From Escherichia phage slur07, in sequence record NC_028780.1: a DNA stretch of 64,000 nt; one strand, 5' to 3'. Under the pieces are notes generated by a model that had not been told where the DNA came from, did not search any database, and worked only from the letters and a program-made list of their open reading frames with translations. Below are positions 14,766-42,110 of this stretch, one piece after another; the first letter of the stretch is position 1, and each line of letters starts with the position of its first letter. The translations under genes were made by a program, and so were the position numbers.

Positions 14766-14767
14766 TA

Positions 14768-14792
14768 GGGAGCCTTCGGGCTCCCTTTTTTA
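14768..14792 (+). terminator. rho-independent terminator
   Basis: GGGAGCC-TTCG-GGCTCCC followed by TTTTTT. Confidence 0.6.
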
Positions 14793-14815: not shown

Positions 14816-14845
14816 GTTTACAAGCATAAAGCTTTATGGTACTAT
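14816..14845 (+). promoter_or_regulatory. T4-type early promoter with A/T UP element
   Basis: GTTTAC 14816-14821, TACTAT 14840-14845; upstream AAAAATTTTTCACAAAACT. Confidence 0.6.
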
Positions 14846-14889
14846 ACAACTATCAACTGATACGGATTTGGAGAATAAAATGAAAACTG
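14837..14889 (+). repeat. promoter-leader-start cassette, near-identical copy at 42058-42110
   Basis: 53 nt identical except 2 positions, runs from -10 through RBS into first 3 codons. Confidence 0.8.
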
Positions 14890-15848
14890 TAACTATCAAT
14901 AAGGGTATCTACTTCGGTAAAGAAATCTCTGGAACTTTTGAGCTCTTAGGTGAATGGTTCCCAGATAATGCTCCGGTAGATGCGCAAGGAGATGGTAAAG
15001 TTTTTGTTGAAATTGACGGTAAACGTCGCGGTGTTTGGGTTTACAAATCAGACATTTCATATGATGGTGTAAAAGTTGAAGAAGTTAAAGAATCGTATGA
15101 AGATATGAAAACCCGCATTAATAAAAGATTTAATGTTATGGGAATGATGACGAATGGTATTATTAATGGAAATATTCGTTCATTAATTATCTCTGGTGCG
15201 GCGGGTATTGGTAAAACGTATTCTTTAGATAAAGCTTTAAATAAAGCAAATGATATTGGATACATTGAATATAAAAGCATTAACGGTAAAATCTCCGGTA
15301 TCGGTCTTTATGAACAGCTTTGGAATAATCGTGAAGAGAATTCTGTCCTTTTGATTGATGATGTGGATGTTTTCTCTGATATGGACATTCTTAATCTTCT
15401 GAAAGCTGCTCTGGACACTGGAGAGACCCGTAAAGTCTGCTGGAGCACCGCATCTTCTTACTTAGAAGAAAAAGGCATTGAGCGTGAGTTTGAATTTAAA
15501 GGAACGATTGTTTTTATCACAAACGTTGACATTGACCGCGAATTAGACCGTGGTACTAAACTTGCTCCACATTTACAAGCATTAGTGTCCCGCTCAGTTT
15601 ATTTGGATTTGGGTGTTCACACTAATGAAGAAATTATGGTCAGGGTTGAAGATGTTATTCTTTCAACTGACATGATGCAAAAGCGCGGTCTTTCTGATGA
15701 AGAAACTTATAAAGCATTATCATGGATGAAAGTCAATGTTAATCGTTTACGCAATGTTTCACTGCGTACTGCTCTTTATCTTGCTGACTTTATTATGACC
15801 GACAAAAATGGTTGGGAAGAAATTGCTGAGGTTACTCTTCTGAAATAA
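14880..15848 (+). CDS. AAA+/P-loop ATPase, function unknown
   Basis: Walker A GAAGIGKT, Walker B LLIDDVD; 322 aa. Confidence 0.65.
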   Translation: MKTVTINKGIYFGKEISGTFELLGEWFPDNAPVDAQGDGKVFVEIDGKRRGVWVYKSDISYDGVKVEEVKESYEDMKTRINKRFNVMGMMTNGIINGNIRSLIISGAAGIGKTYSLDKALNKANDIGYIEYKSINGKISGIGLYEQLWNNREENSVLLIDDVDVFSDMDILNLLKAALDTGETRKVCWSTASSYLEEKGIEREFEFKGTIVFITNVDIDRELDRGTKLAPHLQALVSRSVYLDLGVHTNEEIMVRVEDVILSTDMMQKRGLSDEETYKALSWMKVNVNRLRNVSLRTALYLADFIMTDKNGWEEIAEVTLLK

Positions 15849-16254: not shown

Positions 16255-16298
16255 GTTTACAAGACCGTTCCTCTGTGGTACTATACAACTATCAACTA
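16255..16298 (+). repeat. early-promoter core cassette, 43/44 identical to 42037-42080
   Basis: GTTTACAAGAC(C/T)GTTCCTCTGTGGTACTATACAACTATCAACTA; includes -35 and -10. Confidence 0.8.
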
Positions 16299-16312: not shown

Positions 16313-16840
16313 ATGAATGCTAAAGATATTTTCAACTTGGTAAACTACAATGATGGTAAATTTAAATCTGAAGCTCAAAGCAAGTTCTTTAATGACATCT
16401 CAATTGGAGGTGAAATCACTGTTGATGGAGGACAAATTTACAAATCACGTTGGAATTGGATCGTTATTATTGATGAGATTGGTATTGTAGAAATTTACAA
16501 AAATACGAATAAAAATCGTACATTACACTGGTCTCGTGATACTAACGAACAGTACAAAAAGGATAAAGCATCTAAATTATCTCGTGTAACTCAAGAAGAT
16601 ATTGAGTTCATCAAGAAAGATATTTTGATGTATGATAACTTAATTGCTGAAGAGCAAGCTGTTATTGATAAATTTGATGAGATTAAAGCTTCTCGTGAAA
16701 TTCCTGATTTTATGAAAGAATCAGTAAATGAACGATACACTCTCATTTCAGAGCGTATTGAAACTTACAAAAAGCAAAGAGCTGAACGCCAGAATACTCT
16801 TCGGAAGTTTGAAGAACGGTTAAAGACGGTACTCGCATAA
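16313..16840 (+). CDS. hypothetical protein
   Basis: 176 aa from ATG 16313 (GGAGGAA RBS). Confidence 0.55.
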   Translation: MNAKDIFNLVNYNDGKFKSEAQSKFFNDISIGGEITVDGGQIYKSRWNWIVIIDEIGIVEIYKNTNKNRTLHWSRDTNEQYKKDKASKLSRVTQEDIEFIKKDILMYDNLIAEEQAVIDKFDEIKASREIPDFMKESVNERYTLISERIETYKKQRAERQNTLRKFEERLKTVLA

Positions 16841-16841
16841 C

Positions 16842-16866
16842 CGCTTTATACCAAGGATGGTATAAT
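16842..16866 (+). promoter_or_regulatory. MotA-dependent middle promoter-like element
   Basis: MotA-box-like CGCTTTA 16842-16848, 12-nt spacer, TATAAT 16861-16866. Confidence 0.4.
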
Positions 16867-16895: not shown

Positions 16896-17303
16896 ATGAA
16901 ACAGTTGATAATTAAAAGATTGAATTTATTGATATGTTGTTTATGTATAGTAATTGCATATGGTTATTACGCAATTAATGATTATATGCATTATAAAGAT
17001 TATGATGTTACTGTAGTTAATACCTTTACAGGAACTCAAGGAAAGGGGTCTAGTTTATCGTTTATTGCCGTATATGAACTAAATGACGGTTATAGATTTA
17101 GCGAATATATTTCACTGGAGATGTATTCTTCAATAGAAAAAGGTGATAATATTACTGTAAGTTTACGTCCTTTCGACGTAAAACAGACATTGTTTGATAA
17201 TATTGTTTGGTTCTTTGGAATGGTATTAGTTCAATCTGTGTGTGGTGCTTATATAGTCTGTTCCATCTTATTCTGTATATTTAGTAAAATTGAAATTGAG
17301 TGA
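16896..17303 (+). CDS. membrane protein
   Basis: 135 aa, N- and C-terminal TM helices. Confidence 0.55.
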   Translation: MKQLIIKRLNLLICCLCIVIAYGYYAINDYMHYKDYDVTVVNTFTGTQGKGSSLSFIAVYELNDGYRFSEYISLEMYSSIEKGDNITVSLRPFDVKQTLFDNIVWFFGMVLVQSVCGAYIVCSILFCIFSKIEIE

Positions 17304-17310
17304 GGAAAAT

Positions 17311-18198
17311 ATGTCAGTAGTAATTAATAATGTCAATGCAGTAATTAAATCTTTAGTTAATAAAAAATTGAATGAATGGACTGTACTTCGTCGTGGAGAG
17401 CCAGATAAATTTTTTCATAGATTTAACCCAACTTTGGATTTGAATGTTATTGACAGAGATGTTCATGCTGAAATATTAGATAAGTTTAAAGTTGATATTG
17501 GGTTTGGATTAGATAAACATTTACAACGAACAAACGGGTCTGGAATGGGTTTATCTAATCGCATCATGAAAGCCCTTAATAAAATTGGAGCGTTGTCTCG
17601 TATTAATGCGAGTGAAATCCTTCGCAATTATAATAAAGGATATGACCTTTATGGTCGACTAATGCCGAAATTATCATTCGATCAAATGATTGCGGATTTG
17701 TGGGAAAATCAACGACGATTATTAGCATTAGGCGCTCGATTAGCTAAAGGTCTAGATAAACAAATGATTTTTAAGACCAATAATACAGAAGACCTTAAAT
17801 GCTTTAAATTTAGTATTCGCGGCGATGATTATTATATCAGAGCTCGCTCTACAGATTATGTTAATATGGGGCATCATCTCTGTTTAGCTTTTGAAGTTTT
17901 AAAAGAAGCTGGAACGTTAGAATATTCATCTGGTGCTAAATGCCCGATTGGTTCAAATTGCATTTTAATTTATCGCCCGGATGAATCCAGTTTAACTAAA
18001 TTTCCTACAAAACCTGTACCAGTTCGTAGTAATGAAAAACATTCTGAGCAAATTGATTATTTTAATAAGCAAATTGAAGAGCTGAATATTTCTATTCAAC
18101 AATATGACGATGAAATTTTCAGACTATCTGGACTGAGTAGTAAAGCTAAATCTGAACGTGAAAAATTAATTAAAATTGTTGATTTACTTAAATCTTAA
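17311..18198 (+). CDS. hypothetical protein with C-terminal coiled coil (array member A)
   Basis: 295 aa from ATG 17311 (GAGGAAA RBS); C-terminal heptads. Confidence 0.55.
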   Translation: MSVVINNVNAVIKSLVNKKLNEWTVLRRGEPDKFFHRFNPTLDLNVIDRDVHAEILDKFKVDIGFGLDKHLQRTNGSGMGLSNRIMKALNKIGALSRINASEILRNYNKGYDLYGRLMPKLSFDQMIADLWENQRRLLALGARLAKGLDKQMIFKTNNTEDLKCFKFSIRGDDYYIRARSTDYVNMGHHLCLAFEVLKEAGTLEYSSGAKCPIGSNCILIYRPDESSLTKFPTKPVPVRSNEKHSEQIDYFNKQIEELNISIQQYDDEIFRLSGLSSKAKSEREKLIKIVDLLKS

Positions 18199-18206
18199 GG
18201 AACACC

Positions 18207-19226
18207 ATGAAAACTCGTTCTCAAATTGAAGATATGGTTCGTAATGCCAGCTATACTCGTGATGTTATGACATTTTTGTGCCAAAATAATTTAGACCCTG
18301 ATAAAGTTAATCGTGATATTCACTTTAAATATATGAATAGCAGTGAATGGTTACGTCATTTTAGTAAAGCGGGGTATATTACACAAATGACTGCTCGTGA
18401 GCAGCTCACCGATTTCTGTAAAACTATTGATTATAAAAATCCTCTATTTGTTCAAGGTGTTGGTCAGAGTAAGGTCGATTTATCATCTGGATTTTTCAAT
18501 CCAAATCATTATCGTATTGAATGGAGATTTATTGCTCTATTCCGTAAACAATTAAAGCAAATTTTGTCGACGGCTAGTCGATTAAAAGGTTCTGATATTA
18601 ACTTAAAGAATCTGAAATTTGATGGTTATACTCTTCAGATGGAAGTAAGACCATTAAAAGAAAATAATAGAACTGCACGAATTAGCTTTAAACCTAATAC
18701 AAAAAATTCTCTTTCAATTTGTGAATGCCTTAAATCACAGTTGACAGAAGCATTTAAGTATATGGATGTTGTTGCTGCTGTTCAATCTAAGATTTTACCT
18801 CGTTTTGAACGATTTAAGTTAGATACAACATCATATGAACTTGATATGATCGTTTCATTTAAATACGATTTTTTGAGAAAGGACGAAGTCCCGCAAGAGA
18901 AAAAGCAGGAAGTGCAAGATAACTTAAATTTATCCAATTACTTATCAAACGATCCTAAATTTTGGATGTATAGTTCAGGTAATAATGATGCATGGAAATT
19001 CAATAAAGTGAATTTTCTTCCTGTTGAAAATCCGAGTCTTAAACCTGTTGAAAAATGGCACGCGGATGCGATTGAGAAGTCTATCAAGGCAGTAGATGAT
19101 GAACTCGTTAAAGCGACCAATGAAGTGCTAGAAGCTGAAAAGGCGTTAGAACAAGCTCAAGAAAAAGTAAAAAATCTCACGAAGCAACGTTCTAAACTGA
19201 ACAATGCACTAAATGCACTGAACTAG
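18207..19226 (+). CDS. hypothetical protein with C-terminal coiled coil (array member B)
   Basis: 339 aa, starts MKTR like member D. Confidence 0.6.
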   Translation: MKTRSQIEDMVRNASYTRDVMTFLCQNNLDPDKVNRDIHFKYMNSSEWLRHFSKAGYITQMTAREQLTDFCKTIDYKNPLFVQGVGQSKVDLSSGFFNPNHYRIEWRFIALFRKQLKQILSTASRLKGSDINLKNLKFDGYTLQMEVRPLKENNRTARISFKPNTKNSLSICECLKSQLTEAFKYMDVVAAVQSKILPRFERFKLDTTSYELDMIVSFKYDFLRKDEVPQEKKQEVQDNLNLSNYLSNDPKFWMYSSGNNDAWKFNKVNFLPVENPSLKPVEKWHADAIEKSIKAVDDELVKATNEVLEAEKALEQAQEKVKNLTKQRSKLNNALNALN

Positions 19227-19255
19227 TTTACTTTGCCACAAGGATGTGGTATAAT
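19226..19255 (+). promoter_or_regulatory. T4-type early promoter
   Basis: GTTTAC 19226-19231, TATAAT 19250-19255. Confidence 0.55.
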
Positions 19256-19283
19256 GTTCTTACTTTCTACTGAGGAGATTATT

Positions 19284-20285
19284 ATGACTCGTAACGAATA
19301 TATCAAATCATTCAATAGCGTTATTGATGATAAAGCTATACCGATGTTTGGTCAAAATATCGTTCTTTCTATTATCAATCAATGGCTCAATAGTGTTGAT
19401 GCAAGTATTGTTTCTTCTACTAAATTTATTCATGAAATTCGTAAAATTTCTAGCCGTGTAGATAAAGATGTTATCAAGAAAACTTTTAAAGAGTCTCGTC
19501 TTCTTTCATATTTGGTTAATCGGGATATTCTTGGTAATTTTGGGAAAGAAATTAAACGAACCAAAGATGTAGTAGGATATAATTGGTTCGGTGATGTTAA
19601 TTCTTATCATCTTAATAATAAAGAAGACCCTGAGAATATTTTTACTCGTCGTTGGATTAGTAATTTCAGACTTTTCAAAGGACAAATTCTAAAATCAGCT
19701 TCTAAATTATGTTATGGCGATTATCGTCAAATTCATCCTTTGGCTTCTGATATGATTATCGTAAAAGAATATGAGCTTGATGAAAATAAAGTAGCTATTT
19801 TTGTGAATTATGGATTTTTTACACCAAACGCTAACCAAAAGAATATTAATAAATTTTTCTCAATTGCTAGCACTATAACTCGTCAGTTAGAGACTGCATT
19901 ACTTTGTATGGAAACAGTAGAAAATATTCATACATATCCTTTTAAGAATATATGCGGATGGGAAGGATATAAAATTGTAATTAGTCTTCGTGAAGTGAAA
20001 TGTGCTTATTCACCGACTGATAAAGAAATTTACCAACAAAAATGTGAAGAAATTGTGAATACTCCTAAAGAAGAAACTACACTTGAGGAACTAATGGATA
20101 ATCTTGATGATTCGCCTGAATCGGTAGAAATTCGTCCAGAAGTTATTGCATTAGAAAAAGCTTATAAAGAAGCTCTAGAAATTTCTAATAAAGCGCAGAA
20201 AGAATATGAGCAGGCTAAAAAGATTTGGGAAGAATCCGTTAATCGTCTTGATCGTCTTGAACAAGCTTTACAGTTAATTAAGTAA
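19284..20285 (+). CDS. hypothetical protein with C-terminal coiled coil (array member C)
   Basis: 333 aa from ATG 19284. Confidence 0.6.
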   Translation: MTRNEYIKSFNSVIDDKAIPMFGQNIVLSIINQWLNSVDASIVSSTKFIHEIRKISSRVDKDVIKKTFKESRLLSYLVNRDILGNFGKEIKRTKDVVGYNWFGDVNSYHLNNKEDPENIFTRRWISNFRLFKGQILKSASKLCYGDYRQIHPLASDMIIVKEYELDENKVAIFVNYGFFTPNANQKNINKFFSIASTITRQLETALLCMETVENIHTYPFKNICGWEGYKIVISLREVKCAYSPTDKEIYQQKCEEIVNTPKEETTLEELMDNLDDSPESVEIRPEVIALEKAYKEALEISNKAQKEYEQAKKIWEESVNRLDRLEQALQLIK

Positions 20286-20337
20286 TTTAAAGCCAAGGAT
20301 GGCTCGGAGTATAAACCATTAACCAAGTGAGAAGAAT

Positions 20338-21267
20338 ATGAAAACTCGTAAACATTATATTGATTATTTTGACAGTCTTATTACTAAACATCGTAATTAT
20401 CAGATAGGACACAGAGCAGTAATCAATAATATTCTTCGTGATTTCCTTCAATATGTTGGTCAGGAAAATCATATCTGTAAAGATACTCAAACCGCTTATT
20501 CTCATTCGTTAGGCAATTTGCTTGAATGGTTTAAACGTTCTCGTATGTTATCTTCTACTGTAGCTCATGAGAACATTAAAAACTTTATGAAGCCGAGCTT
20601 CATTAAATCTGAGACATCTATAACCGATTTGGTTGAATTTACTATTGTTAATGATGTTAAAAAGACTCATTTGGCTGATTGGTTTTCTACCATTCCTGAA
20701 ACTAAATTTGCTGATAAATTTGCTTGTCAATTCAATGACCAAGTGAATATGCTTTTTAAGCATGCTCGCAAACTATTTACCGCGGGCGATGACCGTACAA
20801 ATACAGTTCATGTTAAGGACTGGGTTATTGCTGATGAAGTAACACACAAGCCAGGTGGTTCATCAGTATTAATTAATATCCAGGTTCCTTATTATTACTC
20901 ACGTAATCTTGGCACCATGACAGCTAAAGAAATTAATAAGCACAACAAAACTATTCGTTCGTTGTCTTATAAACTCCGCATGATGTTAAAAATTATGGAC
21001 GTAGTGGAAATGTATGACGAAACCGAAGATAATGGTTCAATGTTATACAGTTCACGCATTCTAATTAAACTGAAGAACCCTAATACATATAAGACAGTTG
21101 TAAAAGAGCCTAAAGTAGAAAAGGTTGATAATCTGAGTGAAGAACGTGAATATCTCAATGCCCGTTTGATTGAAGTTGAAGCCCAAATTACAGAACACGC
21201 CAAATTGTTAAAAGCTCTTAATGCAAAAGCAAATGGTTTACGTAATGCTATTGAGGTATTGAAATGA
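20338..21267 (+). CDS. hypothetical protein with C-terminal coiled coil (array member D)
   Basis: 309-aa ORF. Confidence 0.6.
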   Translation: MKTRKHYIDYFDSLITKHRNYQIGHRAVINNILRDFLQYVGQENHICKDTQTAYSHSLGNLLEWFKRSRMLSSTVAHENIKNFMKPSFIKSETSITDLVEFTIVNDVKKTHLADWFSTIPETKFADKFACQFNDQVNMLFKHARKLFTAGDDRTNTVHVKDWVIADEVTHKPGGSSVLINIQVPYYYSRNLGTMTAKEINKHNKTIRSLSYKLRMMLKIMDVVEMYDETEDNGSMLYSSRILIKLKNPNTYKTVVKEPKVEKVDNLSEEREYLNARLIEVEAQITEHAKLLKALNAKANGLRNAIEVLK

Positions 21268-21653
21268 AAAAGCGTTTATTAGAAGACATTGCAGCTTCAA
21301 GTAATTCCAGTTTAATTAAAATTATTATGGCTGGTGAGGAAGATGATATGGAAATGCGTGGAAAGATTCATGGCTGCGACGATTTAGATTTTAAACCTCC
21401 AGCATGGGATGCTATTATGGCTATGGTTGAACGACGTGAAAGAGCTTCTAAAAACGTTCCTAATTGCCCTGAATGCGGTACTGAACAAGTTCAATTGATT
21501 AACTGGCGTAAACCAGAGCTTGAATATAAATGCCGTCAATGTAAACATAAATTCAGTAAGCATGCTCCGGAAATGGTTAAATTGCCTGACTCTACTGAGT
21601 TCTTTAAAGAACTTGTGAGTGTTCAACCAATGCCTAATAATATTTTGGATTAA
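21264..21653 (+). CDS. zinc-ribbon protein
   Basis: CPECG...CRQC motif; 129 aa. Confidence 0.55.
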
Positions 21654-21655
21654 AA

Positions 21656-21898
21656 ATGACCAAGCGTAAAGAATATATGGAGGCTGCTGAAAAGGCAGTC
21701 CGTGAATTAGCAATAGCTTATTATAATGAACATGGTAAATTTCCTGATAGATACAGCGTGCTTAAATCTGCTTTAACTCGTTCATATAAAAATATGCTAT
21801 CAGAAGTAAGTGATATTATATACAAACATAAAGAACAAACGGGCCAAAGTCTTGATTACGACGAGACTTTTAAACAAGTACTAGGAATTAAGGAATAA
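21656..21898 (+). CDS. hypothetical protein
   Basis: 80-aa ORF. Confidence 0.5.
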
Positions 21899-42036: not shown

Positions 42037-42066
42037 GTTTACAAGACTGTTCCTCTGTGGTACTAT
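42037..42066 (+). promoter_or_regulatory. T4-type early promoter (cassette shared with 14816 and 16255)
   Basis: GTTTAC 42037-42042, TACTAT 42061-42066. Confidence 0.6.
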
Positions 42067-42110
42067 ACAACTATCAACTAATACGGATTTGGAGAATAAA
42101 ATGAAAATTG
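42058..42110 (+). repeat. promoter-leader-start cassette, copy of 14837-14889
   Basis: 51/53 identical. Confidence 0.8.

Follow-up and report, generated by a model that had tools for sequence, protein, structure and literature searches.

Escherichia phage slur07 carries, upstream of its nrdC gene, a tandem array of four diverged paralogues, which we designate A, B, C and D. They were analysed in a 64,000-nucleotide stretch of the genome (NC_028780.1), referred to here as the window, and are orthologues of nrdC.6, nrdC.5, nrdC.4 and nrdC.3 respectively in the T4 reference annotation. The proteins have a common architecture, which consists of an alpha/beta N-terminal domain (N-domain) of about 220–245 amino acids (aa), a flexible linker of 15–50 aa and an amphipathic C-terminal helix of 45–58 residues, the tail. 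The genes are under purifying selection, vary between phages in copy number and in allele, and have exchanged modules in nature. T4 nrdC.5 has been shown to neutralise Dsr1, a SIR2 defence protein of E. coli ECOR17 (PMC9391042). We consider it probable (roughly 0.6) that the array encodes dispensable, early, modular counter-defence proteins, which most likely act by stoichiometric inhibition of host immune proteins. This reading agrees with the lack of a catalytic fold, the modular conservation, the turnover of alleles and copies, and the one known phenotype.

Homology among the four proteins

A preliminary description of this region, made from the sequence alone, had proposed that the four genes are paralogues whose N-domains have diverged strongly. 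The divergence is evident in BLASTP comparisons among A–D, in which C and D form the sole significant pair (24% over 226 aa, E 2.6e-6). Pairwise BLASTP and shallow hhalign comparisons of 2–5 sequences did not have the power to connect A or B, so deeper family alignments were needed. Orthologues were gathered from a set of 5.8 billion proteins and from annotated genomes of phages in other genera, and the resulting family profiles were compared with hhalign. These profiles included the family of Jiaodavirus and Moonvirus (M; phiA85_57 and Merlin91), and in tests with the tails removed the last 65 residues were dropped.

The C and D profiles match at 98%, and at 98.1% with tails removed. B matches a combined C/D profile at 95.5% (E 1.4e-8), or 90.5% with tails removed, in an alignment that is co-linear over 172–179 columns; C against B reaches 70%. 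The C/D profile also matches M at 91–93% (93.5% with tails removed). A matches a merged profile of B, C, D and M at 95.5% over its full length and at 88.3% when only the N-domains are compared (E 2.9e-6, score 47.5). In the same comparison the reversed profile scores 16.0, 40 block-shuffled profiles score 16.5 +/- 2.6 with a maximum of 23.5, and the neighbouring genes nrdC.2, nrdC.7, nrdC.8 and nrdC.10 score 10.7–22.9. Among the 156 open reading frames (ORFs) of the window, A is the top non-member match of the hidden Markov model (HMM) built from the merged profile.

Several motifs are found in common. The motif (K)TR-x-E/H-Y-I-x-x-F is present at the N-terminus of B, C and D; B and D are the two proteins that had been noted to start with MKTR, and C starts with MTR. 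The alignments contain three further co-linear motifs: K-x-[SG]-x-L-[ST]-x-x-x-A-x-x-x-L-x-x-F/Y, L-L-x-x-A-x-R/K-L-x-x-G-D and a helix with the pattern Q-L-x-x-A-L-x-x-M-D-V-V.

AlphaFold2 (AF2) models of A and B were each built with the family alignment, with predicted local distance difference test (pLDDT) values of 76.7 for A and 71.6 for B. Both models show the same order of elements, comprising two helices, a beta-beta-alpha-beta-beta unit, the linker and a long helix. In Foldseek searches of BFVD both match the same protein of phage Mineola (B 7.6e-7, A 2.1e-4) and the same protein of phage Merlin (B 1.4e-4, A 3.4e-4). These two proteins, about 330 aa long and uncharacterised, belong to other phages of the T4-like group. 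For A and B the element order and the common BFVD matches favour paralogy; the template modelling (TM) scores of these matches are 0.2–0.43.

On this evidence we are highly confident that B, C and D share ancestry. Common descent is also very probable for A, which forms the weakest link. The proposed paralogy is therefore upheld, for C and D by BLASTP, for B by direct profile–profile comparison and for A only through the merged profile and the Foldseek neighbours that it has in common with B.

Could the genes instead be unrelated, their likeness being due to convergent low-complexity coiled-coil tails? The single BLASTP pair would agree with this, as would the placement of the proteins in three separate families in Pfam and PHROGs. 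A HMMER search of 1.84 billion representatives with the C/D N-domain profile also reached no A or B members, returning only 9 clusters. This last result suggests that the family is narrow, confined to these phages and fast-diverging, and that the link lies beyond the range of HMMER. The signal survives removal of the tails, however, both between B and C/D and between A and the merged profile, and it stands at 47–50 where the nulls and neighbouring genes give 10–24. The common motifs, secondary-structure order and Foldseek neighbours also argue against convergence, which we regard as largely refuted and very improbable.

The separate families are as follows. B matches the Pfam family DUF7235 (PF23882, gathering score 30 bits) with 411.6 bits and an E of 3e-123 over profile positions 1–307 of 307; A, C and D have no DUF7235 match at E<=1 in Pfam. 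C and D both belong end to end to phrog_1435 (E 6e-169 and 6.2e-115), and B and A are full-length members of phrog_2351 and phrog_2257. Precomputed annotations place PF26899 on A-type proteins and PF26897 on a B/D chimera. These PHROG families, PF26897 and PF26899 are all labelled 'unknown function' and are kept separate. It is already known that B is a DUF7235 member and an orthologue of the published anti-Dsr1 gene. The link of A, C and D to B, and the common tail motif described below, were not found recorded in the libraries queried or the literature searched.

Conserved tails, module exchange and copy number

Each gene had been described as ending in a heptad segment of about 40 residues. 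Such a segment is present in all four, rather than in one alone, and the tail sequences quoted in that description are correct. The last 42 residues of A, B, C and D are proline-free. Their 3.5-residue hydrophobic periodicity exceeds that of shuffled sequences in A (p=0.018), B (p=0.0005) and C (p<0.0005), and is borderline in D (p=0.059). In the best heptad registers I, L, V or A occupies most a and d positions over 6–8 heptads, so a hydrophobic stripe of at least 4 heptads runs along a proline-free helix. The a/d stripe of A reads I,I,I,I / F,L,Y,L,A,L,L, the a/d positions of C are alanine-rich, and D has a clean stripe (a = V,R,L,I,L,A,I; d = L,L,V,H,L,L,L). In the AF2 models the tail of B is a single helix (block pLDDT 67–91) and that of A is formed by two helices (Table 1). 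The B tail has weak profile matches to the coiled coils of Smc, EmrA and keratin.

The C-termini of A–D contain the common motif L-x-x-A/I-[LIV]-x-x-L-K/N. The pattern L..[AIVG][LIVM]..[LI][KN], placed at most 2 residues from the end, occurs in 4/4 array ORFs and in 0/152 other window ORFs of at least 60 aa; as the pattern was derived from these four proteins, this count reflects its specificity and cannot serve as independent confirmation. The motif is kept in divergent orthologues and in gp91 of Citrobacter phage Merlin. When orthologues are compared, the tail is almost always the best-conserved part, typically with 61–79% identity against 19–51% for the core. Tail and core identities are 61–69% and 33–45% for A and 65–67% and 26–49% for C, and the tails of D orthologues are 74–79% identical.

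Natural rearrangements join the modules in new combinations. In phage Manna the N-domain of A is fused in-frame to the linker and tail of C (L002 6215–7252), with the junction at a shared D-E-I, and B is deleted. The metagenomic protein P0056 consists of residues 145–271 of B joined to residues 129–309 of D. Sf25 gp220 is an A protein with an internal duplication of 83 aa. Of the array, a D-type tail alone is left in ACG-C40 and an A-type tail alone in Pinarejo.

Searches of other T4-like phages had been suggested as a way to assess variation in copy number, and the number of tailed copies was found to vary from 0 to 4 across T4-like genera. Tequatrovirus has four (A, B, C and D). Three are present in Mosigvirus (AlbertHofmann; A, B and D) and in Dhakavirus and Gaprivervirus (A, B and C), and phage Manna has two, the A/C chimera and D. 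Moonvirus and Jiaodavirus have one tailed member each. KP15 (Slopekvirus) and Krischvirus have no tailed copy beside nrdC. In Acinetobacter phage AB-Navy71 a single member, AB-Navy71_117, lies directly upstream of nrdC and ends in ...ALEETIKILSK. It is the only near-nrdC candidate with a significant profile match, at 87–89% to the B and merged profiles. No significant profile match was obtained for the other near-nrdC candidates, namely EC-F1 ORFs 26, 49 and 54, KP15_201, the 262-aa genes Merlin92 and phiA85_56, and AB-Navy71_124 and _127.

In tblastn searches 740 phage records have an A-type gene, 531 a B-type, 552 a C-type and 652 a D-type, where the B count is an underestimate because B orthologues fall to 25% identity; about 750 phage records have an NrdC that is at least 80% identical. 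A search for related loci with the Jiaodavirus/Moonvirus pair gave 5 loci and no new diversity. A tblastn search with phiA85_57 found almost only phages of the Klebsiella group (Klebsiella and Raoultella), at least 94% identical. The superfamily has so far been found only in T4-like phages (Straboviridae).

In Moonvirus and Jiaodavirus a conserved 262-aa gene precedes the single tailed member (Merlin gp92, L005 3156–3944; phiA85_56, L006 5133–5921). It is tail-less, has no detectable similarity to the family and sits where coliphages have A and B.

Comparison with T4 gives ratios of nonsynonymous to synonymous substitution rates (dN/dS) of 0.08–0.32 for A–D and 0.00–0.03 for nrdC, endoVII and nrdC.8–10, which indicates that A–D are functional and evolve faster than their neighbours. 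Alleles of D are only 60% identical within one genus. D lies with nrdC.2 in a segment (20338–21653) where the synonymous rate (dS) against T4 is 0.92–0.98, with 0.98 for D, and protein identity 60–80%, compared with a dS of 0.07–0.17 in neighbouring genes. These values mark an allelic replacement, a mosaic segment brought in by recombination. D and T4 nrdC.3 are 87% identical over the first 60 aa, 74% in the tail and 51% in the central domain, and D is 95% identical to the copy in phage Manna.

The T4 reference lacks one A in GAAGAGCTG[A]ATATTTC (window 18076–18092). T4 nrdC.6 is consequently frameshifted, is annotated at 275 aa and has lost its coiled-coil tail. The DNA 3' of the frameshift is still about 97% identical to the window, and the frameshift is either a recent lesion of the laboratory strain or a sequencing error.

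These observations also bear on the suggestion that A–D are subunits of one hetero-oligomeric complex, in which the tails form a mixed coiled-coil bundle with a single function. Such a complex would fit the common end motif, the conservation of the tail above other regions, the adjacency and common orientation of the genes, and the co-occurrence of A, B and one C/D-type copy in four coliphage genera. It is harder to reconcile with the variable copy number, in particular with phage Manna, which keeps only the A/C chimera and D, and with the frameshifted nrdC.6 tail of the T4 reference strain. Furthermore, nrdC.5 alone on a plasmid rescues a T4 clone with large deletions, although the weight of this point depends on the other genes lost. 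We consider a hetero-oligomeric complex to be quite unlikely.

Candidate counter-defence role

The experimental evidence for a function comes from T4. Srikant, Guegler and Laub (eLife 2022, PMC9391042) found that a T4 clone with compensatory deletions no longer plates on ECOR17, and that disruption of dsr1 in this host restores plating. Cloned dsr1 protects MG1655 against the same clone, and expression of nrdC.5 restores its plaquing on MG1655 carrying ECOR17 dsr1. On laboratory hosts the phage can do without the deleted region (PMC9391042). B is the orthologue of this tested gene by both identity and synteny. The literature searched contained nothing on nrdC.3–6, DUF7235 or anti-Dsr1 proteins beyond this study, and no mechanism for NrdC.5.

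As nrdC.5 is already known to switch off an immune protein, nrdC.3, nrdC.4 and nrdC.6 are good candidates for anti-immunity factors. The preliminary description had held that the array resembles families that engage variable host targets; the anti-Dsr1 experiment is consistent with this for B, and we infer it by extension for A, C and D. No significant match of A–D to PDB sequences, NCBIfam or any Pfam catalytic domain was found; the searches yielded only DUF7235 for B and the weak coiled-coil matches of its tail.

A few core motifs are conserved in the N-domains, whose surface otherwise diverges fast. The variable N-domain would recognise a particular defence protein, which for B would be the SIR2-type NADase Dsr1. 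The conserved tail would make the inhibitor oligomeric and so provide avidity against defence proteins that are themselves oligomeric; alternatively, it may dock on a common partner. Direct binding to immune proteins, oligomerisation through the tail and a counter-defence role of A, C and D are all inferred here.

A tentative extension, which we regard as possible, is that the array is a modular toolkit. The tail would serve all members for oligomerisation or docking, and specificity would lie in N-domains that can be exchanged, such that each paralogue and each D allele neutralises a different immune protein. Tandem duplication and in-frame recombination between paralogues would generate new specificities, and the natural A/C and B/D chimeras provide a precedent for such recombination. 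If so, new anti-defence proteins would be encoded by the three T4 genes that are uncharacterised, and also by their single-copy relatives in phages of Klebsiella, Citrobacter and Acinetobacter.

Several points weigh against a counter-defence role for the whole array. An experimental phenotype is available for 1/4 genes (nrdC.5), and its effect on Dsr1 may be indirect. The dN/dS values are below 1, with no gene-wide positive selection. The high conservation of the tails could equally mean that the function of the tail is the main one and that the N-domains are secondary. The membership of A is also less secure when it is compared with single families, where it matches C/D at 27–37% and B at 6–8%, or at 0.3–27% with tails removed. 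Its homology depends on the merged MAFFT-built profile and on Foldseek matches with a high root mean square deviation and TM scores of 0.4–0.5.

In another explanation the proteins are early factors of host takeover or of competition between phages. They might modulate transcription or metabolism or act in superinfection exclusion, and nrdC.5 would then affect Dsr1 indirectly, for example by masking or removing the phage trigger. We think this unlikely and favour the counter-defence role.

T4 has been studied more closely than any other virulent phage; even so, three of the four genes lack an assigned function, and the fourth was tied to Dsr1 only in 2022, without a mechanism. The family link places what was an isolated anti-defence gene within a family, from which clear predictions follow, and the natural chimeras are ready-made domain-swap variants and controls. 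The finding is unsurprising in kind; it points concretely, and in a testable way, to three candidate anti-defence genes of a model phage.

Gene layout, neighbouring genes and comparison with known systems

The window belongs to Tequatrovirus and has about 98% DNA identity to known T4-like phages. Positions 17000–21700 are 98.1% identical to phage vB_Eco_Solly, and 655 phage records match the same stretch. On the 3' side of the array lie ORFs with the same sequence as T4 NrdC thioredoxin and endonuclease VII. A–D lie on the + strand, as does the rest of the pre-replicative region, and the earlier coordinates and sizes of four adjacent, similar-sized genes hold for these ORFs. A, B and C are 95–97% identical to their T4 counterparts at the protein level and D only 60% (Table 1).

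Table 1. Coordinates of the array genes, their tails and other elements in the window.
Feature	Position	Strand	Details
Hairpin terminator	14767..14786		strong, bidirectional; before nrdC.10
Early-promoter-like repeat, copy 1	14816..14857		GTTTACAAG...GGTACTATACAACTATCAAC; upstream of nrdC.10
nrdC.10	14868..15848		326 aa
Early-promoter-like repeat, copy 2	16255..16296		upstream of nrdC.8
nrdC.8	16313..16840		175 aa; ends ...YKKQRAERQNTLRKFEERLKTVLA
Gene A, T4 nrdC.6 orthologue	17311..18198	+	295 aa; 97% to T4 nrdC.6 over 259 aa; AF2: globular N-domain about aa 1–226, linker 227–241, tail helices 242–271 and 277–294
A coiled-coil tail, aa 242–295	18034..18195	+	ends ...EREKLIKIVDLLKS
Gene B, T4 nrdC.5 orthologue	18207..19226	+	339 aa; 95.6% to T4 NrdC.5 over 340 aa, syntenic; AF2: alpha/beta N-domain aa 1–228, disordered linker 229–279, single helix 281–338
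B coiled-coil tail, aa 280–339	19044..19223	+	ends ...KQRSKLNNALNALN
Promoter-like element, B–C gap	19226..19256	+	GTTTAC, 17-nt spacer, TATAAT with TG; 10/12 matches in scan; contains CAAGGATG
Gene C, T4 nrdC.4 orthologue	19284..20285	+	333 aa from T4's ATG; 95.5% to T4 nrdC.4; N-domain about aa 1–245, acidic linker about 246–285, tail 286–333
C coiled-coil tail, aa 286–333	20139..20282	+	ends ...NRLDRLEQALQLIK
C–D intergenic element	20294..20323	+	CAAGGATGG...TATAAA; resembles elements upstream of C and nrdC.7
Gene D, T4 nrdC.3 orthologue	20338..21267	+	309 aa; allele unlike T4's, 60% to T4 nrdC.3
D coiled-coil tail, aa 263–309	21124..21264	+	a/d stripe
Early-promoter-like repeat, copy 3	42037..42078		

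The elements in the B–C and C–D gaps would, judging by their sequence, function as promoters. The octamer CAAGGATG has only 3 occurrences in the 64 kb, at 16852, 19239 and 20294. All three are in promoter-like gaps, upstream of nrdC.7/A, C and D respectively, just 5' of a TATAAT-like hexamer. It is possible that this promoter or operator element was duplicated and moved along with the gene copies. Separately, near-identical early-promoter-like repeats are present upstream of nrdC.10 and nrdC.8, and a third copy is found further along the window.

The nrdC.10 gene lies just upstream of the array and encodes a P-loop protein whose matches to AAA_14, AAA_22 and novel STAND NTPase families stay below threshold. 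The gene is conserved (dN/dS 0.03), and a strong terminator precedes it. The nrdC.8 protein, too, has a long, charged amphipathic helix at its C-terminus, and it ranks second among the non-member matches of the superfamily HMM (hmmsearch E 0.025). In hhalign it reaches only 3.9%. It may be a very distant relative or a truncated one, or the resemblance may be coiled-coil noise.

Product names with 'thioredoxin' are widespread on nrdC.1 to nrdC.11 in GenBank phage records. A thioredoxin or glutaredoxin identity was rejected for the array genes, as no such domain match was found in Pfam or NCBIfam. In Pfam the array genes also gave no reductase domain match, and nrdC.2, nrdC.7, nrdC.8 and nrdC.10, scanned alongside, matched neither a thioredoxin nor a reductase domain. 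The label on the array genes appears to have been carried over from the nrdC.x gene names. A 2026 paper classes T4 nrdC.8 with 'nucleotide reductases' (PMC13275509). The present analysis corrects an annotation error, since in the literature nrdC.x genes are already accepted at face value as 'thioredoxin' or 'nucleotide reductase'.

Three known systems are useful for comparison. The NrdC thioredoxin/glutaredoxin resembles the array proteins only in the nrdC.x name prefix and in the position of the array upstream of nrdC, and its fold differs from the predicted models of A and B. T4 NrdC.5 (DUF7235) is much closer, B being orthologous to it with a full-length match. A, C and D are remote paralogues of NrdC.5 with the same three-part architecture at the same locus, but they fall below the Pfam thresholds for DUF7235 and have no known target. 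The third system is DSAD1, the inhibitor of DSR2 from Bacillus phage SPbeta, which is likewise of phage origin and neutralises a defence protein with a SIR2 domain. Unlike the array proteins DSAD1 is small and is not known to have a coiled-coil tail, and its target is DSR2 rather than Dsr1. By analogy, stoichiometric inhibition of a defence NADase, as by DSAD1 and other protein inhibitors of this type, is a likely model for the action of NrdC.5.

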